Source: a virus (taxonomy: Duplodnaviria > Heunggongvirae > Uroviricota > Caudoviricetes > Crassvirales). Taken from it: a stretch of 64,000 nt of DNA. Below are positions 2,879 to 64,000 of this stretch, in pieces. The stretch lies in the IMG/VR virus record IMGVR_UViG_3300042691_023995, positions 1 to 64,000 of that record. The stretch is one strand, 5' to 3'. The first letter of the stretch is position 1. The number at the start of each line of letters is the position of its first letter. The position numbers and the translations under genes were made by a program. The notes beneath the pieces were generated by a model, which saw nothing but the letters and a program-made list of their open reading frames with translations, had not been told where the DNA came from and made no database searches.

Positions 2879-2885
2879 TGAAAGA

Positions 2886-3512: not shown

Positions 3513-3515
3513 ATT

Positions 3516-9273: not shown

Positions 9274-9372
9274 AGTAAATTAGATTAATGCTATATTATC
9301 TACGAAAAACCCTCATATAGCAACATAACTCTTTGCTATTCAATTATATCTATCTATTTTTACAGGCGTATA

Positions 9373-9395
9373 AACCAAATTAAAATAAACTACAT
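9373..9395 (+). promoter_or_regulatory. conserved late leader motif, copy 1 (aaaccaaattaaaataaactacat, then ATGG)
   Basis: An almost identical 23-26 nt element recurs immediately upstream of ATG 12458. Confidence 0.4.
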
Positions 9396-10682: not shown

Positions 10683-10709
10683 ATTTTCATTAAATAAAAG
10701 GATAACAAA

Positions 10710-12263: not shown

Positions 12264-12269
12264 GGCCCC

Positions 12270-12430
12270 CCTGTAATCTCAGAATTACAGGTCTGCTTCC
12301 TCTGGAAGCGTACATATACCGAGAAGAGAATGCCCCCCACACTCCCATGTGGGGGAGCTCTTCTCAAATTACAGAGTGTTTGGATTGGGGAGTCTCCCAG
12401 TCGCTGGCCCTTCGGTGGGAACCACTCTGC
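12270..12430 (+). terminator. GC-rich multi-hairpin element after the MCP gene (terminator cluster or structured RNA)
   Basis: Hairpins cctgtaat/attacagg (12270-12291), gcttcc/ggaagc (12295-12309) and a compound hairpin gagaagag...cccccaca-ctccca-tgtggggg...ctcttctc (12321-12365). An outer pairing cagagtg/cactctg encloses about 50 nt (12372-12429). Confidence 0.5.
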
Positions 12431-12435
12431 AAATA

Positions 12436-12457
12436 AAACCAAATAAATAAACTACAT
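12436..12457 (+). promoter_or_regulatory. conserved late leader motif, copy 2 (aaaaccaaataaataaactacat, then ATGG)
   Basis: Near-identical to the 9373-9395 element, directly abutting the start codon. Confidence 0.4.
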
Positions 12458-13426
12458 ATGGGTAAGTTAGGTAAAATCTCAACAATTAAGAAGGAGTATA
12501 ATAACTCACAACTTCAGACAATGCAAGGTGGTCTTGCACTTAAAGGCTTAACACGTATTCCTGGAACAGGGGTGTTTAAATATCCCTACAAGGAGCTGGA
12601 TGGTCAATACAGAACAGGACTTGATCCTAATGCTGCATACATCCGTAGAATCTCTGATCCTCTAGAAAGAGAGATGGAGATTGAACGTGTTACAAAACTT
12701 AAAGACAAGTTACAAGCTGCACTTGGTGATATTGACTTAGGTCCTCGTTCTAGTTTCTGGAACTATGGATTGTCTACATCTACACAAGATAGTTTGCATG
12801 TTCAGCCTGTGAAATTGCTGGATGGTGATAACTTCTTCGATCTTGCTATTCCTCTTCAGGAATTAGCTTTCTCTTGGTTACGTGTTCATCCAACAATTGC
12901 AAGCTCATATCAAGCTTGGGAACGTGGTGAATATGCTGCTGAAACTCAGTTCTATGTAGCTGATGATGAAATCGAGAATGCTGTACTCTTCAAGAAGAAG
13001 CAACTTATCAATAAAGCTATTGTTAAGTTTGACAGTATGACTCCTGAGAAGAAGAGAAAAGTGGCACGTTTGTTGGGACTACCTGTAACTGATGATACTA
13101 AAGAGGAAGCAGTTTACAACCTTGTAGACAACGTCCTTAAACAAACCGAGTTTAAAAACGGTAAGTATCAAGGTCTGAATCCTGTTGAAGTGTTCACACG
13201 CTTTGCAGACATGAAAGACAACTTACTCCATATTAAAGACTTAGTGAAACAAGCAATTGCTCACTCTGTTTATAGAGCTAAGCCAAATGGTAAAATCTAT
13301 GAAGGTGAGTTTGAAATAGCTAAGGACGAAGATGATTTAATTAAACAACTTGCAGATGATGACAACCAAGACTTGCTCTTGACCCTCGAAGGTAAGTTGA
13401 AAACTAAGAAATTAGCTGCAGTATGA
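12458..13426 (+). CDS. virion structural protein (322 aa), possible head decoration/auxiliary head protein
   Basis: Follows the MCP gene and shares its leader motif with the scaffold gene. No motif. Confidence 0.4.
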   Translation: MGKLGKISTIKKEYNNSQLQTMQGGLALKGLTRIPGTGVFKYPYKELDGQYRTGLDPNAAYIRRISDPLEREMEIERVTKLKDKLQAALGDIDLGPRSSFWNYGLSTSTQDSLHVQPVKLLDGDNFFDLAIPLQELAFSWLRVHPTIASSYQAWERGEYAAETQFYVADDEIENAVLFKKKQLINKAIVKFDSMTPEKKRKVARLLGLPVTDDTKEEAVYNLVDNVLKQTEFKNGKYQGLNPVEVFTRFADMKDNLLHIKDLVKQAIAHSVYRAKPNGKIYEGEFEIAKDEDDLIKQLADDDNQDLLLTLEGKLKTKKLAAV

Positions 13427-49900: not shown

Positions 49901-52001
49901 ACCTGCTGTGGACTTATACAACTACATCAGGAAAGTTAATGACGACTATAGATCTATTGGATATTTAGGAAGAGGAGAAGAAAGGGTGTTCTTACCATGG
50001 GTGAGAAAGAGTTTAGTGGAAACACTTATGTCTGGTGGCAGGGTGAATCTATTTGAACAGTTCCTAAAGTCTATATCTGTTGATCCAAATTCAGAAGTGG
50101 GTCTTGGTAAAATGGACCAGTACACTGGTAAACCAATTGACGAGATTCCTAAATACTTCACTACAGAGATTAAGGAGGACGTGAGTGAGGACTTATTCAG
50201 GAACCTGGCTCTATATAACACCATGGCTCTTAGATATAAGTATCTTTCAGAGATTGAAGAGCAGGCTTTGGGTTTGGTTGACATAGAGCAAAACAAAGGA
50301 TCAATTGCCACTTCTTGGTTCTCAAAGACCCAATACGACAAGAAAACTGGAAAGCTCATCACTGTTCCAAATAATAGCAAGAACACTGAGCTTATTGATA
50401 GCATGGTGAAGGGTATCATCTATGGACAGAAATATCTGAAGAATGATACGTTTGACCAGGCTCTTGGAAAGCTAACCAACGTTGGTGAAACGATAAACAA
50501 AAAACTTGGTGTGAAGATATTCCCAGAAGGATTAGAGGGAAGAATCATATCAATGAATAAATCTATTGATACACTGAACAAAACATTCAGTCTCCAAGCT
50601 ATGGGTCTGAACCCTCTGTCAGCCACTTCCAACTTGTTTGGTGGCACATCTCAGTCAATTATTAATAGTGGAAAATACTTTACAAAGGGAGACTATCTCG
50701 CTGCTGAAGCAAAGGTGAATGCTAAATGGCTCAACTTTATATCCACTGAGGAAAAGAAAAAGATTATCGGTGCCCTAGATTACTTCCTTCCTCTTACAGA
50801 AGACTTCTCTAGGGATATTGCTAATGAACTGTCTTTGGGTAAGTTGAGTCCTGATGGGATACAGAACTTCCTCATGAGCCTCATGAGAAACTCAGACAAG
50901 CACGTACAAACTGTTAACTTCCTTGCTTACATAGGTAACTCTATTGTAGTGGATGGACAGGTGGTAAATGCTAGGGAATACCTACGCACCACTCCTGAAT
51001 ACTCAGATATGTATTCTGGTACAACAGAGGAAAGACAAGAAAGAGAGAAACGCTTTGAGAAGGATGTTGAGAAGCTTGTAGAAGAAAAGGGAGTGATGAA
51101 GGTAGGACAAGTGGTTGATAATAAGTTTACTATACCTGGCGTAGATAGAAAATCTGAATCAGTGATTGAGCTCAGAAGGAAGATACAACAAGTGAGCAAG
51201 GATGCTCTTGGTAACATGACAGATGACGCTAGGAGAATGATTGACATGAACATATATGGAAATTCTTTCATGTTGTTCAAAAAATGGATTCCAAGACTGG
51301 TGGATGTTAGGTTTGGTGACCTGAAATACAACTCAGCTTCTGATGCTTATGAATGGGGTAGGATGCGTGTTGCGTTTAGCATGCTATCTCTTGACGTTAT
51401 TAAAAGCATAAAGAGGCTAAGAAACTCTCTTGTAGGTAACCAGGCTGGTGTGGATGATATGAGACAGATGTTTGAGAAGAAGAAGGAGGAATATGAGACA
51501 GAAACAGGTAAAGAGCTGGATATGACAGAAACCGAGTTTGTAGACTTGGTAAGAAGAAGTATACAGTCTCAGATGATTGATCTTATGTTCTACCTCACAC
51601 TGATAGGATTGTTCATGGCTCTGAAGGCAAATGCCCCAGATGAGGATGAGGATGAGGTGGTTAGAAACAGATATAGGTTTATCATGAGGGCTACAGACAA
51701 GCTTAAGGATGAGATTGCCTATTTCTACAATCCAGCCAACTTCTCAGCCCTTGTGGCAGGGGGTATATTCCCAGCCATCAGCCAGCTTGACAACTATGGG
51801 AAGTTCTTAAGCAACTTCATGAAGGAAATGTTTGGGGTGATTGTGGGTGACCAGGAGATGAGAGATGACGCTTTTGCTATAAAATACCTTATGAAATCCT
51901 TCCCAATTACAAATCAGCTGTCCCAATATCTCCCTGTGTTTGTTCCAGATGTAGCTAAAGACCTAGGAATTAAAATGCAGTCAAGATCAGGTATAAGGTA
52001 A
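46977..52001 (+). CDS. giant 1674-aa virion protein with a PD-(D/E)xK-like nuclease motif
   Basis: Its start overlaps the upstream stop. SEIKIYDPKTNKAGTIDLVAITKDGKVNIIDWKF (about 48400-48490) fits an E...hhD...hh(D/E)xK nuclease motif. Confidence 0.5.
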   Translation: MQIMSKCALDIRKDIVATVGRKLTEKGAIVQGDVGYFPNPSRAGAAINDINSEFKTSIVKESEKGSFLIEPSDDLINRYFEQYKRQEEGEAGQLQEEERLRGGYTEEQRGEFFQLEQTETSAASPATIAKIKDFLERIGVNVKEYDSIVVNGVKQDANAAALITQKLIQIVQGKEGVALPEEAMHFALEIIKQTNPALYNKLLKEINNYQFYKQILADYGAHPLYQTADGKPDIRKLKDEAIAKVLAETVINQNEGSVENPEHLAKVESWWSQIVEWLKNLFNIKSGFDQAALAVLSGEEIGTVEDIRAEEGAAYLQKTKQEDSIDRLKAMDSRLSIKDVEEEGKKEPRYFLDGVTKILKRVSDDVKDWYSRRFSNNEITKTEKDKAIDDIKRDKGTKGHSDQDYLIRGLNDGRGGILVDENGYLRQDPLDDSGYVPQMDPNDPERVIYETLKENLRERLASFGESTRFLSEIKIYDPKTNKAGTIDLVAITKDGKVNIIDWKFMDLNVDVYEDVPWYKIAAWKNQMDQYKTMLINAYGFKSQDFGQTRMIPIRTVYSGGTLLGIEIGAVDPKDITDAYLMPVGLEEEATGNEQIDALLKKLNAAYRTLSEKKALPSEKKEKAVQLNTLMSAIRQLQIRQNIEPLLEEAKLLNNYIQKVINRFETEWKDKERITPEEEAQRSAFLKEIRDAEKMLGTYTSLDVDLSDLFLSGGSENEKLETEVAKTVRVARALGDKLNRTKTAFVRDVVGRSEKVEDIIKEEKEIGIVARWFSDTASLQLNSAKVLFRKSNRALAKASMDSVDLARELQEIEGRYKKWATAKGLNKKDYFNIIKKKGKNELIDEFNPEFYKELKSRIDRKDPDLFNWVKENIDIKAYNDFLDEQIKKETEEINQKYKDRMEFDRATGNFYLSEEQERKKEWELNKMKKAYNTSSTTSAGWLQYNFIKRFPKVEKWQSQEWKELFKKDAAGNYVNKPAVDLYNYIRKVNDDYRSIGYLGRGEERVFLPWVRKSLVETLMSGGRVNLFEQFLKSISVDPNSEVGLGKMDQYTGKPIDEIPKYFTTEIKEDVSEDLFRNLALYNTMALRYKYLSEIEEQALGLVDIEQNKGSIATSWFSKTQYDKKTGKLITVPNNSKNTELIDSMVKGIIYGQKYLKNDTFDQALGKLTNVGETINKKLGVKIFPEGLEGRIISMNKSIDTLNKTFSLQAMGLNPLSATSNLFGGTSQSIINSGKYFTKGDYLAAEAKVNAKWLNFISTEEKKKIIGALDYFLPLTEDFSRDIANELSLGKLSPDGIQNFLMSLMRNSDKHVQTVNFLAYIGNSIVVDGQVVNAREYLRTTPEYSDMYSGTTEERQEREKRFEKDVEKLVEEKGVMKVGQVVDNKFTIPGVDRKSESVIELRRKIQQVSKDALGNMTDDARRMIDMNIYGNSFMLFKKWIPRLVDVRFGDLKYNSASDAYEWGRMRVAFSMLSLDVIKSIKRLRNSLVGNQAGVDDMRQMFEKKKEEYETETGKELDMTETEFVDLVRRSIQSQMIDLMFYLTLIGLFMALKANAPDEDEDEVVRNRYRFIMRATDKLKDEIAYFYNPANFSALVAGGIFPAISQLDNYGKFLSNFMKEMFGVIVGDQEMRDDAFAIKYLMKSFPITNQLSQYLPVFVPDVAKDLGIKMQSRSGIR

Positions 52002-52070: not shown

Positions 52071-52466
52071 ATGCGAACTGCTGCAATTTGCCCAACATGT
52101 CCCTCATATGAGAACGCTTTGTGCGTGCTCTATAACGGAGAATATCTGACCAATATCGACGTAAACCCTTTAGACTCTCTAGAGGTAGCCCTTGGCAAGA
52201 TAAATGATAACCTCGTGCCTGTATCAGGAACAGGAGCTCCCACAGCTGGAGCTATCTATTTAGGACAGCTCTATGTAAGAACCACCGTGGCTCCAAACCT
52301 CTACTTCGCTAAGTCAACAGGTACAGGTGCTTTGGACTGGAGGATTCTCCTTTCTATTCCATATACAGGAGCCCCTGAATATGCTGATAACGCTGCTGCC
52401 ATAGCTGGTGGTTTAACAGATGGTCAAGTCTACCGTACAGGTGACGTATTGAAAATCGTACATTAA
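52071..52466 (+). CDS. small protein (131 aa) immediately upstream of the mega-fibre
   Basis: Complete ORF, Gly/Ala/Thr-rich with an N-terminal CPTCP...C motif. The fibre gene starts 9 nt after its stop. Confidence 0.45.
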   Translation: MRTAAICPTCPSYENALCVLYNGEYLTNIDVNPLDSLEVALGKINDNLVPVSGTGAPTAGAIYLGQLYVRTTVAPNLYFAKSTGTGALDWRILLSIPYTGAPEYADNAAAIAGGLTDGQVYRTGDVLKIVH

Positions 52467-52474
52467 TTTAGAAC

Positions 52475-55400
52475 ATGAACGTACTTCCTAATATACTAAG
52501 TTATGGAAGTTCAGGTTCATCTGGTACATCAGGTGAAGCTGTTCCCCATATACCAGACTTTTTAGAAAGCTTTCCCCAGCAGGTTGAGACACCTGAACCA
52601 ATCGATCCTACGGTTGGTAAGCCTTCCTTTTTGTCTAAACTGTATAATAGCCCACAGTATCAGACTCCTGATCCTGAGAATACGTCTATAAATTATAGTG
52701 AGAGTTTCTTCAATACACCTCTCCTTTCTAATATTGTTGGCTCTGAATCCTCTGAGGGTGATGGCCAATCATTCATAAATAAGCTCTTTGGTACAACCCA
52801 TTGTGAGCCTAAGTTCACATCCGCCCCTGTGGTATGTGCAGCTAACCCATGTCCTATCACATTGAACGCCACCTGTGTGTTCTATGAAGGACCCAATTTG
52901 ATCTATACAGGAATTAACACTAATGACAACCTCCAGACAGCTCTTGAGAAGATAGAGGCAGCTATTGCTGACGAACTTGCAGGTAGCTCTGGTACAAGCG
53001 GTACGTCAGGCACCTCAGGAACATCTGGCACATCAGGTAGCTCTGGAACCTCAGGAACTGACGGTAGTGGGGGAAGCAGTGGTACATCTGGCACTAGCGG
53101 TATAGACGGAACAAGTGGCACAGCAGGAACTAGTGGCACTTCTGGTACCACTGGTACATCTGGAAGTAGTGGAACTAGTGGAACAGATGGAAGTGGAGGT
53201 AGTAGTGGTACATCAGGGACTAGTGGAACCTCTGGGACATCTGGCACATCTGGTACTACAGGAACCTCTGGTACTACGGGTACAAGTGGCACCTCTGGTA
53301 CAGATGGTAGCGGTGGCACCTCAGGCACTTCTGGCACTTCTGGGACCAGTGGTACAACTGGCACCTCAGGGACAAGTGGAACTACAGGAACTAGTGGTAG
53401 TAGTGGAACTAGCGCTACATCAGGTACATCTGGGACATCAGGAACCTCTGGAAGTTCAGGTACAACTGGCACTAGTGGAACGTCTGGAACAACAGGTACC
53501 TCTGGTAGCTCAGGCACTACAGGCACGTCTGGTACCTCAGGTACTTCTGCAACAAGTGGTACGAGCGGCACCAGTGGTACAGATGGAACAGGAGGCACAA
53601 GCGGTACATCTGGTACATCAGCCACTAGTGGAACTAGTGGTACAACAGGAACCAGTGGGTCAAGTGGCACCAGTGGAACTTCAGGAACATCAGGAACTGA
53701 TGGTAGTGATGGTAGTTCTGGTACATCAGGAACATCTGGTACAGCTGGAACTAGTGCAACATCTGGTACTTCTGGCTCTTCTGGAACTGCAGGAACCTCT
53801 GCAACTAGCGGAACATCAGGCACTTCTGGTACGTCAGCCACTGATGGAACAGGGGGAACTAGTGGTACGTCAGGTACATCTGCCACCTCTGGATCATCAG
53901 GATCTTCTGGAACTGATGGAACAGGAGGTACATCTGGATCGAGTGGTACAAGTGCAACCAGTGGTTCATCTGGAACCTCTGGAACTTCTGGTAGTAGTGG
54001 AACAACAGGTACATCAGGCACTAGCGGTACAAGTGGTACGTCTGCTACAGACGGTACAGGAGGTACAAGTGGAACAAGTGGAACGTCAGGAAGTAGTGGA
54101 ACCACGGGTACATCTGGTACTACAGGTACGTCAGGCACAAGTGGAACCAGTGGTACAAATGGTTCACCTGGAACATCTGGTACATCTGCAACATCAGGAA
54201 CTAGTGGTTCAAGTGCTACATCAGGCACATCTGGAACTAGTGGAACAACTGGTACATCAGGAAGCTCTGGCTTGAGTGGAGATAGATATGCCACTACATC
54301 AAGCACAACATATACATTACAAGCAGCTGGTAATACAGGCACAATCACTGTAGGAACAGGACTAGCCTATACAGTGGCTCAGTCTATTATAATTGCCTAC
54401 AATGCAACAAATTACCAAGAGGCTGAGGTGACATCGTACAACTCTGGTACAGGTAGTTTATCATTCACCACCATTACACAGGTGGGAAGTGGAACATATA
54501 GTTCATGGTTTGTAAACCTAGATGGTGCAACAGGAGGAGATGGTTCTAACGGTACATCTGGTACAAGTGGAACATCTGCTACATCTGGCACTTCAGGCAC
54601 TACAGGAACTTCAGGCACTAGCGGTAGTTCAGGAACTACAGGTACATCTGGTACGTCTGGAACTCCTGGTACATCAGGAACCAGTGCTACTAGTGGAACC
54701 TCAGGAACTACAGGTACTTCGGGCACAACAGGTACTAGTGGCACATCAGGCTCATCAGGCACCTCAGGTACTGATGGATCTGGAGGAACAAGTGGAACCA
54801 GCGGCACCACAGGCACATCTGGCTCAAGTGGAAGTAGTGGATCTTCAGGAAGCAGTGGTTCTAGTGGAACATCTGCCACTTCTGGAACATCTGGTACCTC
54901 TGGCACAAATGGTAGTGCAGGCAGTAGTGGAAGTAGTGGGTCCTCAGGATCAAGCGGTAGTGCTGGAACGAGTGGTACAGCAGGTAGTCCTGGTACGTCT
55001 GGTACTAGTGGTAGTTCAGGCACATCTGGTACAGCAGGTACAACAGGAACTTCTGGAACCTCAGGTACAACAGGTACCTCTGGAACTAGTGGATTAACAG
55101 GAACTTCTGGTACATCAGGGGTGAATGGTACTAGTGGAACATCTGGAACCTCAGGGTCTAGTGGCACTGCTGGTAGCTCAGGTACAGCTGGTAGCTCAGG
55201 AACTAGTGGAACTGCAGGTACATCTGGAACCAATGGTTCTCCAGGTACCAGTGGTACAAGTGGGTCTAGCGGTTCCTCTGGATCATCAGGAACAACAGGC
55301 ACTTCAGGTTCTAGTGGTACAAGTGGAACATCAGGCTCTAGTGGTACGTCTGTAGCTGTAGCTGGTACACAGGAATACATTGTTAAGTTTACATCAGCCA

Positions 55401-58400
55401 CAACAATTGGAAACAGTGCCACATGTCAAAAGGCTAGTGGTGACCTCTGTGTCAACCTAGCAGGTGGTATTGGTGTGGATGTTGGTAAGGGTGGTGGATC
55501 TATTGCTACAAACACAGCAGTGGGTAACAGTGCTCTGTCAAGCAACACCACTGGTGCAGGGAACGTTGCTGTTGGATATTTTGCTCTAAGATGTAACACT
55601 ACAGCTAATAATAACATTGCTATTGGTAAAAATGCTTTATGTGCTAATGTATCATCAACTGATCTTACAGCAGTTGGAGATGCGGCACTTAAAGCAAACA
55701 CAGGTGCTTATAATTCAGCTTTTGGTGCTGCTGCTTTGTATAAAAATACAACAGGAACTAGTAATACAGCCATTGGTTTAAGAGCACTACAAGAAAATAT
55801 TACAGGCAGTAATAACACTGCTGTTGGTAGGTTAGCTCTATTCTGTAACACGGCATCAAATAATACAGCAGTAGGTACTTGTGCACTAAGAAGCAATACC
55901 ACTGGTATTTATAATACAGCTCTTGGAACAAATGCACTCAAATCTAACACTACAGGTGGAAGAAACGTTGGTATTGGTCTTAACGCTTTGATTAGTAACA
56001 TTACAGGTGCTCATAACATAGCTGTTGGATATGTTGCTTTAGGTTGTAATGTTTCAGGCAACAATAACATAGCTCTTGGTAGTTTAGCTTTACAATATAA
56101 TACAGCCTCCAACAACACTGCTATAGGATTTTTTGCATTAAGAGCTAATACTACAGGTAATTACAACACAGCTATTGGTAGAAATGCGTTAAAGGCTAAT
56201 ACTATAGGTAGATATATTGTGGCTTTGGGAGATAGTGCCTTATATTCAAACACAACAGGTGAACGAAATACCGCTGTAGGATATGGTACTTTAGTATGTA
56301 ATACTGTCGGAGCTAACAATACAGCTCTTGGATTCCAAGCACTCCGTCAAAATACGGCTTCCAATAACACAGCCGTTGGTTTCTGTGCTTTAAGAAGTAA
56401 CACCACTGGTGTATATAATACTGCATTAGGTTTTCAATCTTTAGCATCTAATACAACAGGTAATAGTAATACTGCAGTTGGTTTACAATCACTTTTATAC
56501 AATACTAGTGGTGTTCAAAATACAGCTGTAGGTAGAAGTACACTATTCTGTAATACTACAGGAAGTAATAACGTAGCTTTAGGTCAGGCTGCTCTTAGAC
56601 TTAACACTATAGGTAATAGAAACATAGCCATAGGTAGAGCTGCTATGGAAGCCAATACTACTGGTGCGGATAACGTAGCTGTAGGACATTATGCTCTTAT
56701 AGCTAATAGTGTTGGTACAAACAACGTAGCTATTGGTAGAAATGCTTTGTATTGTAATACCGCATCAAATAACACAGCAGTTGGATTTAGTGCTTTACGT
56801 AGTAATACTACTGGTACAAACAACGTAGCAGTAGGTTATTGTGCATTAAGAAATAATACAATTGGCACAGGAAATAATGCATTTGGACATGGTTCACTAA
56901 TCTGCAACACAACAGGAGCTAATAATGTTGCTGTTGGTACATCTTCTTTAGGTAGAAATACAATTGGTACAGACAATACTGGTATTGGTGTAAATACTCT
57001 TTTATATAATACAACAGGTATAAACAACACAGCTGTTGGTAGAAGTGCTCTTCAAACAAATACTACAGGAACTCTTAATACAGCAGTAGGTGTTAATTCA
57101 TTGTTAGTTAATACTGTAGGTTCAGTAAATGTTGCTGTTGGTGTAGGTGCTTTACAATCTAATATATCTGGTAATAACAATATCTCAATAGGTGTTAACT
57201 CCCTTGTAACAAATCAGGTAGGTAGCTCTAACGTAGCTGTGGGTAGAGATGCTTTGTTTTCTAATACAGCATCAAACAATACAGCTATAGGCCACTATTC
57301 TTTAAGATGTAATACTACTGGTACACCTAATACAGCTGTTGGTGCTAATGCTCTTGCTTCAAATACAATTGGAGATATTAATACAGCAATAGGTGTAAAT
57401 GCTTTAAATTCTAATACAACAGGAAGAGGAAACGTCGCTGTAGGTCACACAGCATCCAATTCAAATGTTGTTGGTTCTTATAACACTTCAGTAGGTGTAA
57501 GTGCATTAAGATGTAATACTGCATCAACCAATACTGCAATTGGATTTTATTCTATGAGAAATAACTCCACAGGAACTGTCAATACAGCTCTTGGAGTACA
57601 ATCATTAGCATATAATACAACTGGTGCTAGAAACGTAGCAATAGGACATCAGGCACTTTTCAGTAATGTAGTAGGAGTAAACAATACATCGGTAGGTTAT
57701 TTAGCTCTACTTTGCAGCACTGCATCAAACAACACAGCCGTAGGTTATTGCTCTCTTAGAAGCAATACTACTGGTACATCAAATGTTTCTGTAGGTGGGT
57801 TTTCAACAAGATTAAATACCACTGGTGTACACAACTCTGCTTTAGGATTTGCTGCTCTTGAAACAAATGTAACAGGAAATTATAATGTTGCCGTTGGATA
57901 TAGATCATTAAACCAAAACAAAGCTAGCAACAACACAGCAGTTGGATTTAATTCTTTAAGATTTAACACTACAGGTGCGTCAAACGTAGCTGTTGGTAAA
58001 AATGCGTTAGTAAGTAATACTACTGGTGCGCAGAATGTTGCAATGGGGTATAATGCCTTACTTGCAAACACCTCAGGTGGTAGCAATACTGCTTTGGGAA
58101 TGAAAGCATTGTATTCTAACACAGTATCAAACAATACAGCTGTTGGTCGATATGCAATGTGTGCTAATACAACAGGCACCCAAAACACAGGTCTTGGATT
58201 TGGTGCATTAAAAACTAACACTACAGGTAATACAAACACAGCTGTTGGATATAACGCTTTAACATACAACACAACAGGAGGTCTTAACACAGCAATGGGT
58301 GTGTTGGCTCTTGAAAAGAATACAACTGGGTGCTATAATATAGCAATAGGACCATCTGCTCTTAGAAACAATACTACAGGTGCTAGTAACGTTATTATAG

Positions 58401-61400
58401 GTAGAGATGCTGGGTATGCTAACACAATAGGATGTGCTAATACAGCAGTGGGTACTAACTCTTTAAAATGTAATACAACAGGAGGCAGAAACTCTGCATT
58501 AGGATCTGGTGCCTTAAATGCCAATACAACAGGATGCTTTAACACAGCTGTTGGTTTTAACTCTTTAACAGCAAACACAGTAGGAAGTTTAAATACAGCC
58601 CACGGTGTTCAGGCATTAAAATCTAACACCACAGGAAATAGAAATACAGCTTTAGGTTTAAATGCATTATATGCAAACAACGGTAGTTACAACGTAGCAG
58701 TTGGTACCTATTCAACACAAAATACAACAACAGGTTCTTGTAACGTAGCTGTGGGTTATGCAACGTTAGTTGCTAATACAACAGGTATTAGAAACGTAGC
58801 AATAGGTGTTTGTGCTTTAAGTGCAAACCAAGCATCTTCAATTGTTGCTGTGGGACCTAATGCCTTAAGATGTAATACAACAGGAGCAGGAAATACAGCA
58901 CTTGGTAATCAGGCATTGTTTGCTAACACAACAGGAGCAAATAATACTGCTGTTGGACAGAATGCAATGTTATGTAATACTACTGGAGGTGGTAACTCTG
59001 CACTTGGTGATTACGCATTAAGGAGTAACACAACTGGTAATAATAACGTAGCAATTGGTAGATTAGCAGCATCATGCAATACTGTTGGTTCTTATAACAT
59101 AGCAATAGGTAGAGACTCTTCACAAAATAATGTATCAGGAAGTAATAATATTGGTATTGGTTTCCAAGCATTACTACAGAACACAGCGTCAAATAATACT
59201 GCTCTAGGATATAGAGCATTAAGAAGCAACACTACTGGTGCTTATAATGTAGCAGTAGGTGCATGCTCATCAATGTACAACACCACAGGTGGTATAAACA
59301 GTGCATTTGGTTTTAGAGCAATGCTTAGAAACACCACTGGTATTCAAAATAATGCATTTGGTTTCTTAGCGCTTTGTAACAGCAATGGTAACTATAATAA
59401 CGCATTTGGTGTTTGTGCTCTAAGACAAAACACGACAGGTGCTCGTAATACAGCTGTGGGCCATAGATCCATGAACTATAACACAACAGGTAGTTATAAC
59501 ACAGCCATGGGTATGTGTTCTTTGTTGTGTAACACCACAGGTTCTAGTAATGTTGCTTTAGGATTTGCCTCATTACAATGTAACTTAACAGGTACAGACA
59601 ACGTTGCAGTTGGTGTTAATTCGTTATTTAAGAATTGTTCTAATAATAATGTTGCAGTTGGTGCTGCGGCTATGTTGGAAAACACAACTGGTACAAACAA
59701 TGTTGCAATTAGTACCAGTGCGTTGAGGAATAATACAACAGGAGTAAGCAATGTTGCTATAGGATTTTATTCTCAAAGAGTTAGTGTTGCTTCTAACAAC
59801 ACTTCAGTGGGCGTTAGTACACTGAGATGTAACACAACAGGTACTAATAACGTAGCACTTGGAATTTCAGCGTTGTATTCAAATACAACAGGTGTTTCAA
59901 ATGTTGCTATAGGATCTGTTTCTTTGGCAGGCAATACAATAGGTCAACACAACGTAAGCATTGGTAGAGTAGCTCTTAGAAATAATAGTACAGGTAATAG
60001 TAACGTCGCTCTTGGTAGCTATGCTCTTTATGCAAATGTTACAGGTTGCAATAACATAGCCATGGGTTATTTGTCTTTAGCTTGTAATACTGCTTCTAAC
60101 AATACAGCAGTGGGATATGCATCATTAAGATTTAATACCTCTGGTACAGACAATGCAGCATTAGGTCAATGTGCATTGATTTTCAATACTACGGGTGCAC
60201 AAAATACAGCTGTTGGTAAACAAGCTATGATGTACAACAACGTAGGTTGTAGAAACACAGCAGTGGGTACTTTTGCATTGTTTAGAACAAGGTGTAGCAA
60301 TCAAGTGGCTGTAGGATATGGTGCTTTAAGATATAACATAACAGGTGTTGGTAATACAGCAGTGGGTTATACCGCAGGAAGAAATAACGTATGTGGAAAC
60401 AATAATACATCATTAGGAAATTCAGCATTAACTTCTAATACAGCATCATATAATACAGGTATAGGAGCTCAGGCATTAACAAGTAATACAACAGGTGGTA
60501 ACAATACAGCTGTTGGTATGCAATCAATGTTGCTTAATACAACAGGGTATCGAAACACAGCATTAGGTGTAAGAGCATTATGTGCTAATACTACAGCAAA
60601 CAGTAATACTGCACTAGGGTATAGTGCACTAAGAAAAAATATAACAGGCGCAGATAACACCGCTGTAGGAGGATATGCTCTTGCATGTAACACATCAGGA
60701 CGTCAAAACGTAGCTATTGGTAAGGATTCATCTAGATACAATCAAACAGGTATTTATAATACATCTCTAGGTGTAGCCTCTTTACAATCAAATACAGCAG
60801 GTAGTCGTAACACTGCTATTGGTTATCAAGCTTTATTATTGAATACAGCTTCTAACAATACAGCAGTGGGATATCGTTCCTTGAGGAATAATACTACAGG
60901 CTATTGTAATACGGCTGTAGGTAGATTTGCTTTATTTGCTAATACAACAGGCTTTAGAAACAATGCTTTTGGATCAAGAGCACTCTATTCCAATACTACA
61001 GGTGTTAGAAATGTGGCAATGGGTGATAGAGCTCTGGCAGCAAATACAATAGGTTTAAGTAATAGCTCCTTTGGAACTTATGCTCTCTATACTAACACAA
61101 CAGGATCTCTTAACGTAGCTGTAGGAAGCCAAGCATTATTTTATAATCTAGTTGGCTCAGCTAACACTGCTGTTGGAGCTGATGCGCTATTGTGTAACAA
61201 AGCATCAGGTAACACAGCCGTTGGTTTTTGTGCCTTAAGAACTAATACTACTGGTGCTCAGAATGTAGCTGTGGGGTACGGAGCATTGAGATTAAATACC
61301 ACAGGTCAGTATAACACTGCTTTAGGATATCACGCTTTACGTAATAGCACAGGATCACAGAACAATGTTGGTTTAGGAATGCATGCAGGATGTGCTATTA

Positions 61401-64000
61401 CTACAGGTAGTAATAATATTGCAATTGGTAGGGACGCTTTATCTACTGGCCAAACCATGAACAACAACGTTGCTGTAGGTAGAGATGCGCTACTTTTAAA
61501 TACAGCAGACCACAATACCGCAGTAGGATTCTGCGCACTTAGAAGTAATACGACAGGTAATAGAAATACCGCTGTTGGTAGATATACTTTAAGATCTAAT
61601 ACAACTGGTAAATACAACGTAGGTGTAGGTGTTAATGCACTAGAATCAAATGCAGTGGGAGATAATAATACTGCTGTTGGTATGTTTGCACTTACAGCTA
61701 ACACAGCATCAAACAACACAGCGGTTGGTTTCTGTTCTCTTAGGAGTAATACTACAGGAGGTAATAATACAGCTGTTGGTAGATACTCACTAAGAACAAA
61801 CACTGTAGGCTACAATAATACTGCTCTAGGTGTTAATTCACTACAATGTAATGTATCAGGTAGATGGAATACAGCAGTTGGTTTTGTATCATTAAATTTA
61901 AACACTACAGGTATAGACAATACAGCATTAGGTGGAAACTCACTATATGCTAATACAACAGGAAACAGTAATACAGCGCTAGGTACCAACGCTTTGTGTG
62001 CTAATACAACAGGTGGATTCAATGTTGCTGTTGGACAGTCTGCATTAAGAGTAAATACTGCATCTAATAATACGGCTGTAGGTAGTTGTGCCTTAAGATA
62101 TAATACCACTGGTACACAAAACGTAGCTCTTGGATTTGAAGCTCTACTATTAAATGTAGGTGCTAATAACAATACAGCTGTAGGAGCAGTGGCTATGAGA
62201 AGAAATACCAGCGGTGCTTACAATACAGCTATGGGTAGGGCTGCTCTTTATGCTAACACAATAGGAACTAGTAACGTTGCCATTGGATATAGATCATTAT
62301 TTTCTAATACCACTGGAGATCATAATGTTGGTGTTGGAACTAACTCATTAAGATATAATACTACAGGAGGTTGTAACGTAGCATTAGGTAGTACAGCATT
62401 GAGAAATAATACAACTGGTATTCGTAATACGGCTGTAGGTTGTGGTGCTATGTATGGAAACACAGGAGGACAAGCAAATGTAGCTGTTGGATTTAATGCT
62501 AATCAAGCTAACAACACAGGTGGAAGTAACACAGCTATTGGATTTAATTCACTGGCTAATAATAAAGCAGGTAGCAATACAGCTGTAGGTGCTAGTTCAC
62601 TTTATAATAACACTACTGGATTTAATAACACAGCTGTAGGACTTAATGCTTTAGTATCAAACACAACGGGATATAATAACGCTGCACTTGGTGTACAATC
62701 ACTTCAGTGCAATACAACAGGAAGACGTAATGTTGCGGTGGGTCCAAATGCACTATTCTGTAATACAACAGGACAAAATAACACAGGTTTAGGTTATAGA
62801 TCTGGACAAAATAACCAAACTGGTACAGGAAACGTATCTGTTGGATATTATTCATTAACAGCCAATACAGCTTCAAATAATACAGCATTAGGTGCAAGTG
62901 CGTTAAGAGCCAACACCACTGGTGCTAATAACACAGCTTTAGGTTATGTTGCGTTAAGGAATAATACTACAGGAGCATCTAACGTAGCAATTGGATTTAG
63001 AGCACTTTGTGGCAATACAACAGGTGTAGCTAATATATCCATAGGTGTTCAATCCATGCTATATAATGCAGGTGGCACTGCAAACATAGCTGTAGGATCA
63101 CAAGCATTGTATAAGAACAATGGTTCTAATAACACTGCGGTTGGTCATGAAGCAATGAAATGTAACACAACAGGTAATAGTAATACTGCTGTTGGATCTA
63201 ACGCACTGTTTAAGAATACCACTGGTGTTTACAACACAGCGCTTGGAGGTAATGCTTTACAATGTAACACAACTGGTTGTAGGAACGTTGCTCTAGGTTT
63301 AAATACAATGAGATTTAACCTAACAGGATACCAAAATATAGGAATAGGTGTAAATGCTCTGTTGAACAGCTCATCAAACTCTTGTGACATTGGTATAGGT
63401 GATGGTGCTTTGTGTTCTAATACATATGGTGGTGGAAACGTAGGTGTTGGTATGTTGGCACTGAGCAGCCACAACTGGTACATCAAATCTCACAACGTTG
63501 CTATTGGTACCAGGGCATTGAAAGCAAACACCATTGGTAGCAATAATACAGCTGTAGGAGGATATGCTCTATATAAGAACACTAATGCAGGTGAGAATGC
63601 TGCGTTTGGTTACTTGTCTATGGCGTGCAACACCACAGGTAGTAGCAATGCAGGATTGGGAACCCAAACACTAAAATCCAATACTACAGGTGTTTGTAAT
63701 ACAGCTGTAGGTACAAGAAGCTTATATCAAAACACCATAGGTACTTGCAATACAGCTGTAGGAACATGGGCCCTCTTTAACAACACTACAGGAAGATGTC
63801 ACGTGGCTGTTGGATTTATAGCCAACTGTGCTATAAATGCGAACATCACTAACACTATTGCTGTAGGTACATGTTCTGCTACATCTGCTACAACAGGTCA
63901 CACTGTTTGGGGTAATAGTGGTAACAACGTTTGTAACTGCGTATATGCAGCTTGGTCAAACGTATCTGACTGTCGTGATAAGACCAATGTTGAAACTCTT
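52475..64000 (+). CDS. giant repeat fibre protein, at least 3842 aa and 3'-truncated by the window edge: N-terminal domain, two collagen-like GXY blocks, about 160 x 17-aa beta-solenoid-type repeats and the start of a C-terminal S74-like chaperone domain
   Basis: ATG 52475 is preceded by an in-frame tag at 52469-71. Hand translation of the frame with codon starts at positions equal to 2 mod 3 is open to base 64000, spot-checked at 52.5-53.0, 54.2-54.5, 59.0 and 63.9 kb. Absent from the ORF track only because there is no stop in the window; the track shows its antisense and off-frame shadows instead. Confidence 0.85.
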   Translation, partial: MNVLPNILSYGSSGSSGTSGEAVPHIPDFLESFPQQVETPEPIDPTVGKPSFLSKLYNSPQYQTPDPENTSINYSESFFNTPLLSNIVGSESSEGDGQSFINKLFGTTHCEPKFTSAPVVCAANPCPITLNATCVFYEGPNLIYTGINTNDNLQTALEKIEAAIADELAGSSGTSGTSGTSGTSGTSGSSGTSGTDGSGGSSGTSGTSGIDGTSGTAGTSGTSGTTGTSGSSGTSGTDGSGGSSGTSGTSGTSGTSGTSGTTGTSGTTGTSGTSGTDGSGGTSGTSGTSGTSGTTGTSGTSGTTGTSGSSGTSATSGTSGTSGTSGSSGTTGTSGTSGTTGTSGSSGTTGTSGTSGTSATSGTSGTSGTDGTGGTSGTSGTSATSGTSGTTGTSGSSGTSGTSGTSGTDGSDGSSGTSGTSGTAGTSATSGTSGSSGTAGTSATSGTSGTSGTSATDGTGGTSGTSGTSATSGSSGSSGTDGTGGTSGSSGTSATSGSSGTSGTSGSSGTTGTSGTSGTSGTSATDGTGGTSGTSGTSGSSGTTGTSGTTGTSGTSGTSGTNGSPGTSGTSATSGTSGSSATSGTSGTSGTTGTSGSSGLSGDRYATTSSTTYTLQAAGNTGTITVGTGLAYTVAQSIIIAYNATNYQEAEVTSYNSGTGSLSFTTITQVGSGTYSSWFVNLDGATGGDGSNGTSGTSGTSATSGTSGTTGTSGTSGSSGTTGTSGTSGTPGTSGTSATSGTSGTTGTSGTTGTSGTSGSSGTSGTDGSGGTSGTSGTTGTSGSSGSSGSSGSSGSSGTSATSGTSGTSGTNGSAGSSGSSGSSGSSGSAGTSGTAGSPGTSGTSGSSGTSGTAGTTGTSGTSGTTGTSGTSGLTGTSGTSGVNGTSGTSGTSGSSGTAGSSGTAGSSGTSGTAGTSGTNGSPGTSGTSGSSGSSGSSGTTGTSGSSGTSGTSGSSGTSVAVAGTQEYIVKFTSATTIGNSATCQKASGDLCVNLAGGIGVDVGKGGGSIATNTAVGNSALSSNTTGAGNVAVGYFALRCNTTANNNIAIGKNALCANVSSTDLTAVGDAALKANTGAYNSAFGAAALYKNTTGTSNTAIGLRALQENITGSNNTAVGRLALFCNTASNNTAVGTCALRSNTTGIYNTALGTNALKSNTTGGRNVGIGLNALISNITGAHNIAVGYVALGCNVSGNNNIALGSLALQYNTASNNTAIGFFALRANTTGNYNTAIGRNALKANTIGRYIVALGDSALYSNTTGERNTAVGYGTLVCNTVGANNTALGFQALRQNTASNNTAVGFCALRSNTTGVYNTALGFQSLASNTTGNSNTAVGLQSLLYNTSGVQNTAVGRSTLFCNTTGSNNVALGQAALRLNTIGNRNIAIGRAAMEANTTGADNVAVGHYALIANSVGTNNVAIGRNALYCNTASNNTAVGFSALRSNTTGTNNVAVGYCALRNNTIGTGNNAFGHGSLICNTTGANNVAVGTSSLGRNTIGTDNTGIGVNTLLYNTTGINNTAVGRSALQTNTTGTLNTAVGVNSLLVNTVGSVNVAVGVGALQSNISGNNNISIGVNSLVTNQVGSSNVAVGRDALFSNTASNNTAIGHYSLRCNTTGTPNTAVGANALASNTIGDINTAIGVNALNSNTTGRGNVAVGHTASNSNVVGSYNTSVGVSALRCNTASTNTAIGFYSMRNNSTGTVNTALGVQSLAYNTTGARNVAIGHQALFSNVVGVNNTSVGYLALLCSTASNNTAVGYCSLRSNTTGTSNVSVGGFSTRLNTTGVHNSALGFAALETNVTGNYNVAVGYRSLNQNKASNNTAVGFNSLRFNTTGASNVAVGKNALVSNTTGAQNVAMGYNALLANTSGGSNTALGMKALYSNTVSNNTAVGRYAMCANTTGTQNTGLGFGALKTNTTGNTNTAVGYNALTYNTTGGLNTAMGVLALEKNTTGCYNIAIGPSALRNNTTGASNVIIGRDAGYANTIGCANTAVGTNSLKCNTTGGRNSALGSGALNANTTGCFNTAVGFNSLTANTVGSLNTAHGVQALKSNTTGNRNTALGLNALYANNGSYNVAVGTYSTQNTTTGSCNVAVGYATLVANTTGIRNVAIGVCALSANQASSIVAVGPNALRCNTTGAGNTALGNQALFANTTGANNTAVGQNAMLCNTTGGGNSALGDYALRSNTTGNNNVAIGRLAASCNTVGSYNIAIGRDSSQNNVSGSNNIGIGFQALLQNTASNNTALGYRALRSNTTGAYNVAVGACSSMYNTTGGINSAFGFRAMLRNTTGIQNNAFGFLALCNSNGNYNNAFGVCALRQNTTGARNTAVGHRSMNYNTTGSYNTAMGMCSLLCNTTGSSNVALGFASLQCNLTGTDNVAVGVNSLFKNCSNNNVAVGAAAMLENTTGTNNVAISTSALRNNTTGVSNVAIGFYSQRVSVASNNTSVGVSTLRCNTTGTNNVALGISALYSNTTGVSNVAIGSVSLAGNTIGQHNVSIGRVALRNNSTGNSNVALGSYALYANVTGCNNIAMGYLSLACNTASNNTAVGYASLRFNTSGTDNAALGQCALIFNTTGAQNTAVGKQAMMYNNVGCRNTAVGTFALFRTRCSNQVAVGYGALRYNITGVGNTAVGYTAGRNNVCGNNNTSLGNSALTSNTASYNTGIGAQALTSNTTGGNNTAVGMQSMLLNTTGYRNTALGVRALCANTTANSNTALGYSALRKNITGADNTAVGGYALACNTSGRQNVAIGKDSSRYNQTGIYNTSLGVASLQSNTAGSRNTAIGYQALLLNTASNNTAVGYRSLRNNTTGYCNTAVGRFALFANTTGFRNNAFGSRALYSNTTGVRNVAMGDRALAANTIGLSNSSFGTYALYTNTTGSLNVAVGSQALFYNLVGSANTAVGADALLCNKASGNTAVGFCALRTNTTGAQNVAVGYGALRLNTTGQYNTALGYHALRNSTGSQNNVGLGMHAGCAITTGSNNIAIGRDALSTGQTMNNNVAVGRDALLLNTADHNTAVGFCALRSNTTGNRNTAVGRYTLRSNTTGKYNVGVGVNALESNAVGDNNTAVGMFALTANTASNNTAVGFCSLRSNTTGGNNTAVGRYSLRTNTVGYNNTALGVNSLQCNVSGRWNTAVGFVSLNLNTTGIDNTALGGNSLYANTTGNSNTALGTNALCANTTGGFNVAVGQSALRVNTASNNTAVGSCALRYNTTGTQNVALGFEALLLNVGANNNTAVGAVAMRRNTSGAYNTAMGRAALYANTIGTSNVAIGYRSLFSNTTGDHNVGVGTNSLRYNTTGGCNVALGSTALRNNTTGIRNTAVGCGAMYGNTGGQANVAVGFNANQANNTGGSNTAIGFNSLANNKAGSNTAVGASSLYNNTTGFNNTAVGLNALVSNTTGYNNAALGVQSLQCNTTGRRNVAVGPNALFCNTTGQNNTGLGYRSGQNNQTGTGNVSVGYYSLTANTASNNTALGASALRANTTGANNTALGYVALRNNTTGASNVAIGFRALCGNTTGVANISIGVQSMLYNAGGTANIAVGSQALYKNNGSNNTAVGHEAMKCNTTGNSNTAVGSNALFKNTTGVYNTALGGNALQCNTTGCRNVALGLNTMRFNLTGYQNIGIGVNALLNSSSNSCDIGIGDGALCSNTYGGGNVGVGMLALSSHNWYIKSHNVAIGTRALKANTIGSNNTAVGGYALYKNTNAGENAAFGYLSMACNTTGSSNAGLGTQTLKSNTTGVCNTAVGTRSLYQNTIGTCNTAVGTWALFNNTTGRCHVAVGFIANCAINANITNTIAVGTCSATSATTGHTVWGNSGNNVCNCVYAAWSNVSDCRDKTNVETL
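52982..54280 (+). repeat. collagen-like block 1: about 144 Gly-X-Y triplets, mainly GTS/GSS/GTT/GTD, with rare Gly-to-Ala breaks
   Basis: Continuous ggt-aca/agc triplets with Gly every third codon. Recurring GTDGSGG punctuation. Confidence 0.85.
54524..55351 (+). repeat. collagen-like block 2: about 90 Gly-X-Y triplets including a GSSGSSGSS run
   Basis: Same periodicity, separated from block 1 by a roughly 85-aa non-collagenous insert (DRYATTSSTTYTLQAAGNTGTITVGTGLAYTV...SWFVNLD). Confidence 0.85.
55511..63900 (+). repeat. coding tandem array of about 160 diverged 51-bp / 17-aa units, consensus N-[TV]-A-[VLI]-G-x-x-[AS]-L-x-x-N-T-[TA]-G-x-x (YadA-head / Hep_Hag-like)
   Basis: Units are diverged at the nucleotide level but conserved at the protein level. 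A marker unit NTASNNTAVGxxALRxNTTG recurs about every 10 units (about 16 times). Confidence 0.85.

Follow-up and report, generated by a model that had tools for sequence, protein, structure and literature searches.

Organization of the fibre gene

The window (the whole stretch of DNA analysed here, 64,000 nucleotides in length) codes for terminase, portal, and major head protein, and its end is occupied by a fibre gene on the plus strand (52475..64000), whose frame is open from 52472, has an ATG at 52475, and runs without a stop to the end of the window and beyond (residues are numbered here with 52472 as residue 1). The source of the fibre is an uncultured freshwater phage. The full product has 3951 aa, as called on the near-identical contigs L002 and L003, and 109 of these residues fall past the window end. 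No DNA continuing past this point was found by exact-pattern scans of IMG/VR and JGI metagenome contigs; the full length and the C-terminal domain of the fibre are taken from the gene calls of the near-identical contigs and from homologues. From the N- to the C-terminus, the protein comprises an N-terminal Cys module, two collagen-like blocks, approximately 160 repeats of 17 aa, and, by homology, a C-terminal Peptidase_S74 chaperone. That the blocks lie inside a phage fibre, as had been proposed for this DNA, is corroborated by matches of the distal part to PHROG tail spike and virion structural families (E ~1e-109).

The N-terminal region (52475..52834) has a conserved start, MNVLPNILSYGSSGSSGTSG, followed by a Pro-rich and poorly conserved stretch. 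This N-terminus is conserved in four homologous proteins (P0002, P0003, P0011, and P0016) and in loci L009, L012, and L023, and is probably the virion-proximal end. Neither a Pfam match at E ≤ 1 nor a PHROG match was obtained for the region, and a tblastn search of phage genomes with the first 169 aa was likewise negative. It is followed by the Cys module (52835..52981), which contains three conserved Cys residues (alignment A2) within the pattern C-x4-C-P-x7-C-V-F-Y-x-G...N-T-N-D-N-L-Q-T-A-L-E-K-I and ends in a short helix that abuts the first collagen-like block. The AF2 model of this module is weak (pLDDT 61) and consists of a beta hairpin and a helix at residues 41-55. The module was found in 35 of 79 related IMG/VR loci, and uncultured-phage relatives recovered by protein and IMG/VR searches also have it N-terminally, in many cases at the very N-terminus and often with GTS repeats directly behind. 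It may act as a cap, set the register, or mediate attachment. An ORF of 131 aa immediately upstream (52071..52466, plus strand) begins with a diverged version of this module, 30% identical and with the invariant C-V-x-Y-x-G...L...D columns kept (alignment A2); it has no collagen, and its C-terminal part is related to the protein P0017. Possibly the ORF encodes a small partner or paralogue of the fibre.

Behind the collagen-like blocks lies a junction (55352..55510, plus strand) that begins with SVAVAGTQEYIVKFTSATTIGNS and is the point at which relatives switch to different distal modules; it is common to L010, L014, L016, L043, and P0145/P0147 and absent from the ortholog L009. The remaining distal part (55511..63799) is an array in which a 17-residue unit (NTAVGxxALxxNTTGxx) recurs approximately 160 times; the autocorrelation peaks at lag 17, and of the 156 spacings between motifs 121 equal exactly 17 residues. 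The array, presumed to be a beta-helical, receptor-binding shaft, matches PHROG families 23837, 4636, and 6002 (E ~1e-107 to 1e-109) and no Pfam family or PDB sequence; no Pfam families were found in the neighbouring giant ORFs. The last 36 nucleotides of the window (63965..64000) are the start of a Peptidase_S74 domain, beginning with S-D-C-R-D-K (63965-63982), in which the Ser and Lys match the cleavage dyad of PF13884. Almost all homologues of the last 243 aa of the fibre in the window contain PF13884, and in P0018, P0022, and P0064, which have the same preceding 30 residues, position 1 of PF13884 is the Ser of SDCRDK. The number of residues after the point corresponding to the window end is 107-112 in these three proteins and 119 in P0019, compared with 109 here. 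Based on the homologues and the recorded product length, the fibre is predicted to end in an S74 chaperone whose body lies outside the window. Fibres and spikes with such a chaperone include the phage K1F endosialidase and the T5 L-shaped fibre; members of the PF13884 family are obligate homotrimers, and the chaperone is cleaved off after folding. The fibre studied here resembles them in the S-D-x-R-x-K start of PF13884 at its C-terminus, with the full domain present in homologues, and a trimerising chaperone at this position implies a homotrimer. The characterised S74 members are not known to have a collagen stalk.

Two collagen-like blocks with uninterrupted phase

Block 1 (52982..54286, plus strand, aa 171-605) consists of 145 Gly-X-Y triplets (435 residues), mostly GTS, and block 2 (54524..55351, plus strand, aa 685-960) of 92 triplets (276 residues). 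Gly occupies the first position in 134 of 145 triplets in block 1 and 89 of 92 in block 2 (223/237 overall), all 14 exceptions (11 and 3, respectively) are Ala, and both blocks keep phase throughout; in residue shuffles of the blocks the longest in-phase run of Gly or Ala did not exceed 12 triplets. Both blocks score far above the gathering threshold of the Pfam Collagen family PF01391 (27.2 bits), with 164.6 bits (E 4.1e-49) for block 1 and 130.4 bits (E 2e-38) for block 2. The original prediction, which had described two blocks of about 432 and 276 residues with Gly at every third position and had suggested a triplet scan and the Collagen HMM as checks, thus agrees with the translation in the correct plus frame in both periodicity and length.

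The typical layout is Thr at X and Ser at Y: these two residues make up 427 of the 474 X/Y positions (90%), Pro only 4 (0.8%), and charged residues 14 (3%). The X and Y positions tolerate at least eight residue types, and the Gly position admits Ala alone besides Gly. At the DNA level, the longest exact repeat within the 2370 nt is 18 nt, 80 GTS triplets are spelled by 38 different 9-mers, and the Ser codons include TCN as well as AGY forms. The scarcity of long exact repeats, together with the varied 9-mers and the mixed Ser codons, suggests selection at the protein level. Repeat copies delimited by TRF are 60-80% alike in their DNA.

A super-repeat of roughly 30-40 residues, marked by GTDGSGG and GTNGSPG punctuation, had also been proposed. 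A weak enrichment was indeed found for triplets with Asp or Asn at Y (10 pairs at a spacing of 12-16 triplets vs 4.8 expected, p ~0.02), but it corresponds to ~36-48 residues and no matching DNA-level period was found in the blocks. The punctuation itself is irregularly spaced (1 to 31 triplets), and long stretches have none.

Antisense reading frames

Two long ORFs on the minus strand, one of 481 aa (52903..54348, PDVPVVPLVP...) and one of 336 aa (54412..55422), lie opposite blocks 1 and 2, respectively. Considering that both are free of stops and that the JGI gene caller annotated the antisense ORFs on contigs L005 and L006, one might suppose that these Pro-rich frames are the expressed products, as on some public contigs. 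However, any run of GGN-ACN-(TCN/AGY) automatically yields a stop-free antisense CCN-GTN-(GAN/CTN) frame, and the antisense ORFs stop within ~60-110 nt of the block ends and are interrupted at the insert between the blocks, whereas the plus frame runs on into domains with thousands of homologues. Other long ORFs of the window are nearly all on the plus strand, unlike this pair. Codon-position entropy cannot separate the two strands because their third positions coincide, and a comparison with the ortholog L009 was used instead: the collagen-like blocks show 229 synonymous vs 61 replacement codons in the sense frame, which is the better conserved one, as the same changes would give 106 amino-acid changes in the antisense frame. 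On L005 and L006 the plus frame is also open across both blocks, the sole difference being Ser-to-Pro at 55196. The chance that the minus-strand frames are the real products is therefore negligible, and both ORFs are by-products of the collagen codons, as the original prediction held. Gene callers may annotate such antisense Pro-Val-rich frames and thereby introduce fictitious proteins into public databases.

A conserved domain between the blocks

The two blocks are separated by an insert of 79 aa (54287..54523, plus strand), close to the 85 aa initially suggested; the domain as detected spans 54281-54529, including a GDRY entry and an NLDGATG exit motif. The insert adjoins both collagen-like blocks, and the helix-ending Cys module adjoins block 1. 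The AF2 monomer model of the insert is a confident six-stranded beta-barrel. The advice to examine this insert for a trimerisation domain was worthwhile: the domain is real and widespread, being present in no fewer than 1321 protein clusters, and 140 of 188 insert copies have collagen flanks. In P0140, successive copies are separated by 3-5 triplets only. No Pfam family was found for the insert at E ≤ 1, and a PDB sequence search with its profile gave nothing significant. On this conservation, the predicted 79-aa barrel is a conserved domain without a family name. A similarity to CD40L/TNF was dismissed as chance, the PDB matches being at E ~0.3 only. The insert also matched the PHROG family 'head closure Hc2' weakly (E 0.0024), and this was given no weight.

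Evolution of the fibre and alternative structures

The ortholog L009 has the N-terminus and stalk in common with the fibre and diverges completely from 55352 onward. Indels between the two in the collagen-like blocks comprise 9, 6, 36, 18, and 18 residues, whole triplets throughout, whereas those in the N-terminal region (60% nt identity) comprise 5, 2, 4, and 5 residues and are not multiples of three. The Cys module is 92.5% identical at the nt level, with 1 replacement in 49 codons. As for the Gly-to-Ala substitutions, their presence had been foreseen, but 'only a handful' was an underestimate: the 14 sites represent ~6% of the triplets, and they are to be regarded as features and not noise because 11 of the 14 are kept in the ortholog. 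Locus L010 has the distal part in common with the fibre and not the N-terminus. Among relatives, the stalk is retained and the N-terminal or distal modules at its ends are swapped.

The blocks might instead be disordered Gly/Ser/Thr tethers, possibly O-glycosylated and mucin-like, in which the period is left over from expansion through 9-bp duplications. Their composition, with almost no Pro or charge, is akin to that of engineered flexible linkers, and the GXY flanks of the insert have pLDDT below 50 in the AF2 model, though this is expected of any single collagen chain. A relic period, however, ought to decay, and here all 237 triplets keep the Gly phase despite heavy divergence of the DNA. 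The whole-triplet indels relative to the ortholog are confined to the blocks, and first-position substitutions are Ala only, with a similar bias in relatives (60 Ala and 6 Ser among 695 well-flanked Gly positions). Furthermore, LR756501, a 735-kb phage, encodes a 2816-aa protein that keeps strict phase over runs of 301 and of 424 triplets. None of these regularities would be required by a disordered tether. We thus consider such tethers unlikely. The possibility that the megablast match to LR756501 was low-complexity noise was rejected, the homology being real via the insert domain (47% identity), and the Gly-Thr-Ser composition of the LR756501 protein was read directly.

Polyproline II/polyglycine II (PPII/PGII) helices packed in a non-collagen way, such as an antiparallel PGII bundle with GTD-GSG-G as turns, would also have Gly at each third residue and could make use of the Gly-Gly punctuation that recurs at ~12-16 triplets. 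The snow-flea antifreeze protein and the gp38 adhesin of phage S16 contain antiparallel PGII bundles or sandwiches, but these domains are composed of short strands of ~10 residues and loops, not of runs of hundreds of residues. Given its irregular spacing and its lack over long stretches, the punctuation does not supply regular turn motifs, and the LR756501 relative has 424 triplets with no punctuation pattern and no Ala at Gly positions. The putative trimerising modules at the flanks would suit a parallel three-chain rod. We therefore regard a bundle of this kind as very improbable.

In the set of 79 related IMG/VR loci, Thr/Ser fills 80% or more of the X/Y positions in 68, and the Pro content is below 2% in 72. 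The Gly-Thr-Ser collagen fibre design is common in environmental phages.

A proposed triple-helical stalk

Considering the strict phase, the Ala-only substitutions, the PF01391 scores, the whole-triplet indels, and the collagen-tied insert, we propose a homotrimeric tail fibre in which the two blocks probably form a collagen-type triple-helical stalk. The phase, the selection pattern, and the domain conservation are direct observations, to which homology adds an S74-type C-terminus; the helix itself is what we infer from them. In such a stalk, three identical chains would wind together with Gly and the occasional Ala on the axis and the Thr/Ser side chains facing the solvent. At a rise of 0.29 nm per residue, block 1 would extend for ~126 nm and block 2 for ~80 nm, giving a stalk of roughly 200 nm that may serve as a thin spacer keeping the distal shaft of 17-residue repeats off the virion. 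The three insert barrels would constitute a globular node, probably a knee, that clasps the chains and maintains their register between the two helices. Trimerisation would most likely begin C-terminally via the Peptidase_S74 chaperone, with folding then proceeding towards the N-terminus, where block 1 may be capped by the Cys module with its short helix and thereby joined to the virion-proximal part. Conserved local soft spots may be provided by the Gly-to-Ala sites and by the GTD-GSG-G / GTN-GSP motifs, and the blocks would also act as evolutionary joints for module swapping.

Several features speak against a triple-helical stalk: both stabilisers of characterised bacterial collagens, Pro and charge, are nearly missing, a (Gly-Ser-Thr)-rich sequence may equally be a flexible linker, and each of the 14 Gly-to-Ala replacements would locally weaken a collagen helix. 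A more specific version, in which an essentially proline-free and charge-pair-free (Gly-Thr-Ser)n helix of hundreds of residues is stable via side-chain hydroxyl hydration and length, the conserved Ala sites act as hinges, and the barrel is a registering trimer node and a novel type of nucleation domain used again in over a thousand protein clusters, is offered tentatively, and we lean towards doubting it.

Comparison with characterised collagen-like proteins

The closest characterised analogues are EPclA and EPclB from prophages of E. coli O157:H7, tail-fibre proteins whose Col domains are flanked by globular modules and differ in length by multiples of three residues; the triple helix of EPclA, with a Tm of 42 C and nucleation by the globular PfC domain, was shown experimentally, as was the part that flanking domains play in trimerisation (Ghosh et al. 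2012, PMC3368898). Our fibre is similar in having collagen with flanking modules in a phage fibre and whole-triplet length changes, although the layout is analogous only. In contrast to the PfN-PCoil-Col-Pf2-Col-PfC arrangement of EPcl, its N-terminus and insert have no detectable homology to PfN, Pf2, or PfC (Pfam, E ≤ 1), and its collagen is 5-10 times longer, has almost no Pro or charge, and precedes a ~2800-aa distal shaft with the predicted S74 chaperone.

Streptococcal Scl1/Scl2 and BclA of Bacillus likewise have Thr-rich Gly-X-Y repeats without hydroxyproline, and proteins of this type have a non-collagen trimerisation domain beside the helix (PMC8968730). In characterised bacterial collagens, Pro accounts for about 19-31% of X positions, Thr is found chiefly at Y, and charged residues are often numerous (PMC8968730); our fibre departs from Scl/BclA in placing Thr at X and Ser at Y and in its low Pro and charge. 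The earlier statement that Thr and Ser in place of Pro are typical of bacterial collagen-like proteins is thus not upheld; such a composition is typical solely of the environmental phage group. Substantial Pro at X and/or many charges, a typical though not strictly defining feature of the characterised members, is lacking in both blocks.

Collagen-like stalks in phage fibres are already known, and in this respect the finding is an ordinary one. However, the fibre belongs to a large unstudied subclass, and its composition lies outside the range tested for collagen stability; a literature search covering few subscription journals, on Gly-Thr-Ser or proline-free collagens and on collagen repeats in metagenomic phages, found no functional or structural study of this subclass. 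Should the barrel act as a trimer clamp, it would explain how register is kept in very long collagen rods, and if both a proline-free helix and a new nucleation domain prove true, the rules of collagen stability would be widened and parts for designed collagen materials would become available.

The same barrel occurs within collagen-like repeats in proteins of uncultured phages annotated as 'Collagen triple helix repeat' (UniProt A0A6J5..., Virus NIOZ-UU157; 25-64% identity in BFVD). These proteins and that of LR756501 differ from the fibre in repeat number, insert number, and terminal modules. Module exchange at stalk ends illustrates how phages recombine their host-recognition parts.

Identification of two collagen-like blocks in the fibre protein

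The plus-strand frame of the fibre gene is open from its ATG at 52475 to the window end (residue 1 is numbered here from nt 52472). A triplet scan of this frame recovered exactly the two Gly-Thr-Ser blocks of the original prediction, namely block 1 (aa 171-605, nt 52982-54286, + strand, 145 Gly-X-Y triplets) and block 2 (aa 685-960, nt 54524-55351, + strand, 92 triplets). The predicted three-residue Gly periodicity is pronounced: the 237 first positions comprise 223 Gly and 14 Ala with no other residue, and the longest in-phase Gly/Ala run after shuffling residues within each block was at most 12 triplets, versus the real 145 and 92. Thr and Ser occupy 230/237 X positions and 197/237 Y positions, and Pro and charged residues account for only 4 and 14 of the 474 X/Y positions. 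Both blocks also match the Pfam Collagen HMM that had been proposed as a check (PF01391; 164.6 and 130.4 bits, cut-off 27.2). Thus, block coordinates, first-position counts, shuffles, and Pfam scores confirm the earlier observation. Super-repeats of roughly 30-40 residues, which had also been suggested, fared less well: Asp/Asn punctuation at Y is enriched at a spacing of 12-16 triplets (p ~0.02) but is irregularly spaced, and Tandem Repeats Finder reported only degenerate periods of 9-72 nt (59-84% match).

Structural constraint on the repeat

The collagen region combines a monotonous protein sequence with varied DNA: its longest exact repeat within 2370 nt is 18 nt, the 80 GTS triplets are encoded by 38 different 9-mers, and TCN and AGY codons for Ser are used about equally. 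Block lengths are identical on 5 contigs from different samples. The sole difference among these contigs in the collagen region is a population polymorphism at position 55196 (T in the window, C in the JGI contigs L005 and L006), converting Gly-Ser-Ser to Gly-Ser-Pro in block 2.

An ortholog in IMG/VR (L009) shares the N-terminus, the Cys module preceding block 1, the insert between the blocks, and both blocks (132 and 79 triplets). The blocks of the two proteins are 76-82% identical at the DNA level; 229 of the differing codons are synonymous and 61 are replacements. All block indels (9, 6, 36, 18, and 18 residues) are whole triplets, and the N-terminal region has indels of 5, 2, 4, and 5 residues. 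The 14 Ala at Gly positions correspond in L009 to 11 Ala, 2 Gly, and 1 gap, and two Gly positions of the window are Ala in L009. In the wider Gly-Thr-Ser group, 695 well-flanked first positions include 60 Ala, 6 Ser, and nothing larger. These substitution and indel patterns suit first positions that pack along a helix axis, not a free linker. The main rival reading, that the blocks are a disordered Gly/Ser/Thr tether, appears improbable, since such a pattern (Ala-only substitution at first positions, whole-triplet indels) is unlike that of a free linker. The fibre is probably a homotrimer whose blocks wind into a collagen-type triple helix, and the original reading of a collagen-like stalk in a phage fibre is essentially right.

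Antisense reading frames

In both blocks the sense frame is open, the +1 frame contains 2 stops, and one antisense frame contains none. The reverse complement of GGN-ACN-(TCN/AGY) is CCN-GTN-(GAN/CTN), i.e., Pro-Val-(Asp/Glu/Leu), which cannot hold a stop codon and hence keeps this frame open; codon-position entropy cannot separate the two strands because their third codon positions coincide. The resulting Pro-Val-rich minus-strand ORFs (52903-54348, 481 aa; 54412-55422, 336 aa) stop ~60-110 nt from the block ends and are interrupted by the insert, whereas the sense frame runs on into conserved domains. Amino-acid changes relative to L009 number 61 in sense and 106 in antisense, in an alignment built on the sense protein and favouring it somewhat. 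These points decide in favour of the earlier view of the minus-strand ORFs as antisense by-products. Public gene calls on L005 and L006 nevertheless place genes on the two antisense ORFs (481 and 336 aa) and not on the collagen frame, which is open there through both blocks. Antisense ORFs of the same type (946 and 1399 aa) occur in the 735-kb phage LR756501. Fictitious antisense proteins are probably present in public collections wherever Gly-Thr-Ser collagen genes occur.

The insert between the blocks

The 79-aa insert has a conserved entry (G-D-R-Y) and exit (N-L-D-G-A-x-G). No Pfam family matched it, and sequence search found no solved relative. When all 1.84 billion representatives were scanned with HMMER, 1321 clusters matched the insert at E<=1e-3 (387 at E<=1e-10), with 1 to 11 copies per protein. 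In the 150 best matches, 188 copies could be evaluated, 140 of which are flanked on each side by 4 or more Gly-X-Y triplets, and the collagen composition varies from Gly-Pro-Gln-rich to Gly-Thr-Ser; in some proteins (e.g., the database relative P0140) successive copies are 3-5 triplets apart. AlphaFold2 (52-sequence alignment) predicts a six-stranded all-beta domain with core pLDDT ~90, and a Foldseek search of viral models returned 25 proteins at E<=1e-3, mostly labelled 'Collagen triple helix repeat [uncultured Caudovirales phage]'. The insert is thus a real domain, predicted to be a beta-barrel. Three such barrels might together make up a node keeping the chains in register from one helix to the next, and this node could act as a knee.

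Probable trimerization and the fibre termini

The called fibre product on near-identical contigs from other samples has 3951 aa, and therefore 109 aa lie beyond the window end. Following a short junction (55352-55510, +), a 17-residue repeat (NTAVGxxALxxNTTGxx) recurs ~160 times in tandem over 55511-63799 (+; aa 1014-3776). This array of ~2760 aa (16% Asn, 68 Cys) matches PHROG tail-spike and virion-structural families (E ~1e-107 to 1e-109), with no Pfam family and no PDB relative by sequence search; the repeat is common to >4400 database proteins, most with a Peptidase_S74 C-terminus. The last residues encoded in the window are ...AAWSNVSDCRDKTNVETL, and nearly all homologues of the last 243 aa contain Peptidase_S74 (PF13884). 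In three homologues sharing the preceding 30 residues, PF13884 profile position 1 is the Ser of SDCRDK, presumably the cleavage site, and 107-119 residues follow the point equivalent to the window end in four homologues. Chaperones of the Peptidase_S74 family form trimers and promote folding of the fibre upstream of them, after which they are cleaved off. Because of this type of C-terminus, the fibre is best read as a homotrimer, which a homotrimeric collagen helix would need.

At the other end, the Cys module (52835-52981, +; ~48 aa) lies directly before block 1 and contains three conserved Cys and CVFYxG...NTNDNLQTALEKI. Of the 79 related IMG/VR loci, 35 contain it, and in many relatives it forms the extreme N-terminus, directly followed by Gly-Thr-Ser repeats. 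No other part of the fibre is as well conserved relative to L009 (1 replacement in 49 codons). It was modelled, with low confidence, as a beta hairpin plus a 15-residue helix continuing into the collagen; we conjecture that the module serves as a cap, sets the register, or provides a site of attachment. The 131-aa ORF immediately upstream of the fibre (52071-52466, +) begins with a diverged copy of the module (30% identity) and lacks collagen; its C-terminal half is similar to a portion of P0017, a sequence listed under Daphnia sinensis but probably derived from contaminating phage. The fibre N-terminus MNVLPNILSYGSSGSSGTSGE (52475-52540, +) is conserved in the orthologs L009, L012, L023, P0002, P0003, and P0016, and itself holds four Gly-X-Y triplets, >100 residues before block 1.

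Relatives, module exchange, and comparison with known collagens

Relatives of the insert are encoded at 79 IMG/VR loci, one with 790 triplets; Thr/Ser make up at least 80% of X/Y in 68 of them and Pro <2% in 72. When window DNA was compared with the phage record collection, the only match was LR756501, in the collagen and insert region. LR756501.1 has two adjacent giant collagen-like genes (nt 18-4643, 1541 aa; nt 4677-13127, 2816 aa). The 2816-aa protein carries the same insert (47% identity) and strict Gly-Thr-Ser-type runs of 301, 44, and 424 triplets with zero Ala at Gly positions; the 301- and 424-triplet runs rank among the longest uninterrupted Gly-X-Y runs encountered. The inter-collagen domain of the 1541-aa protein is different.

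L009 has the N-terminus and stalk of the window fibre, but its distal part is unrelated, starting with the residue that follows block 2, and locus L010 has the same junction and distal repeats with a different N-terminal half. From these sharing patterns, modules are exchanged at the collagen ends. A minimal relative of 832 aa (nt 4726-7221 of IMGVR_UViG_3300021962_000209 and 3300021963_000102) comprises the Cys module, 128 triplets, an insert 95% identical to that of the window, 96 triplets, a ~30-aa tail, and little else, offering a natural minimal construct for experiments.

The blocks belong to an already known class, the collagen-like phage fibre stalk. The nearest characterised system is the collagen-like tail-fibre proteins of E. 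coli O157 prophages, among which EPclA forms a triple helix that melts at 42 C and is nucleated by a flanking globular domain (PMC3368898). Their layout is that of the window fibre, but the flanking domains are not homologous. In characterised bacterial collagens, Pro fills ~19-31% of X positions, Thr sits mainly at Y, and charged residues are often numerous (PMC8968730), whereas the window fibre is rich in neither Pro nor charge. Thr/Ser in place of Pro, originally described as typical, is so for its own uncultured-phage group (68/79 loci) but not for characterised bacterial collagens. No paper on Gly-Thr-Ser collagens was found in an incomplete coverage of the literature. The window fibre falls in a large proline-free subclass, experimentally untouched, with an unnamed inter-collagen beta-barrel; that collagen is stabilised here in a new way and that the barrel is a new type of domain setting the collagen register is conceivable but rather doubtful.

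Genomic context

The window corresponds to a structural gene module of a phage, with nearly every long ORF on the + strand, encoding the large terminase, portal, and major head protein, followed by very large ORFs of 1691, 3978, and 1674 aa, none with a Pfam family. The 1691-aa ORF is matched only by PHROG virion-structural-protein families. Directly upstream of the fibre, the 3978-aa ORF (35053-46989, +) overlaps by 13 nt the 1674-aa ORF (46977-52001, +), which has no PHROG match. These two may be candidate virion-packaged proteins, e.g., RNA polymerase, an idea raised because the terminase is distantly crAss-like or Cellulophaga phi17:2-like: it is nearest to that of Leptolyngbya phage Lbo-JY46 (40% identity), with 33% identity to Cellulophaga phages phi17:2 and phi4:1 and ~28% to crAss-like phages.
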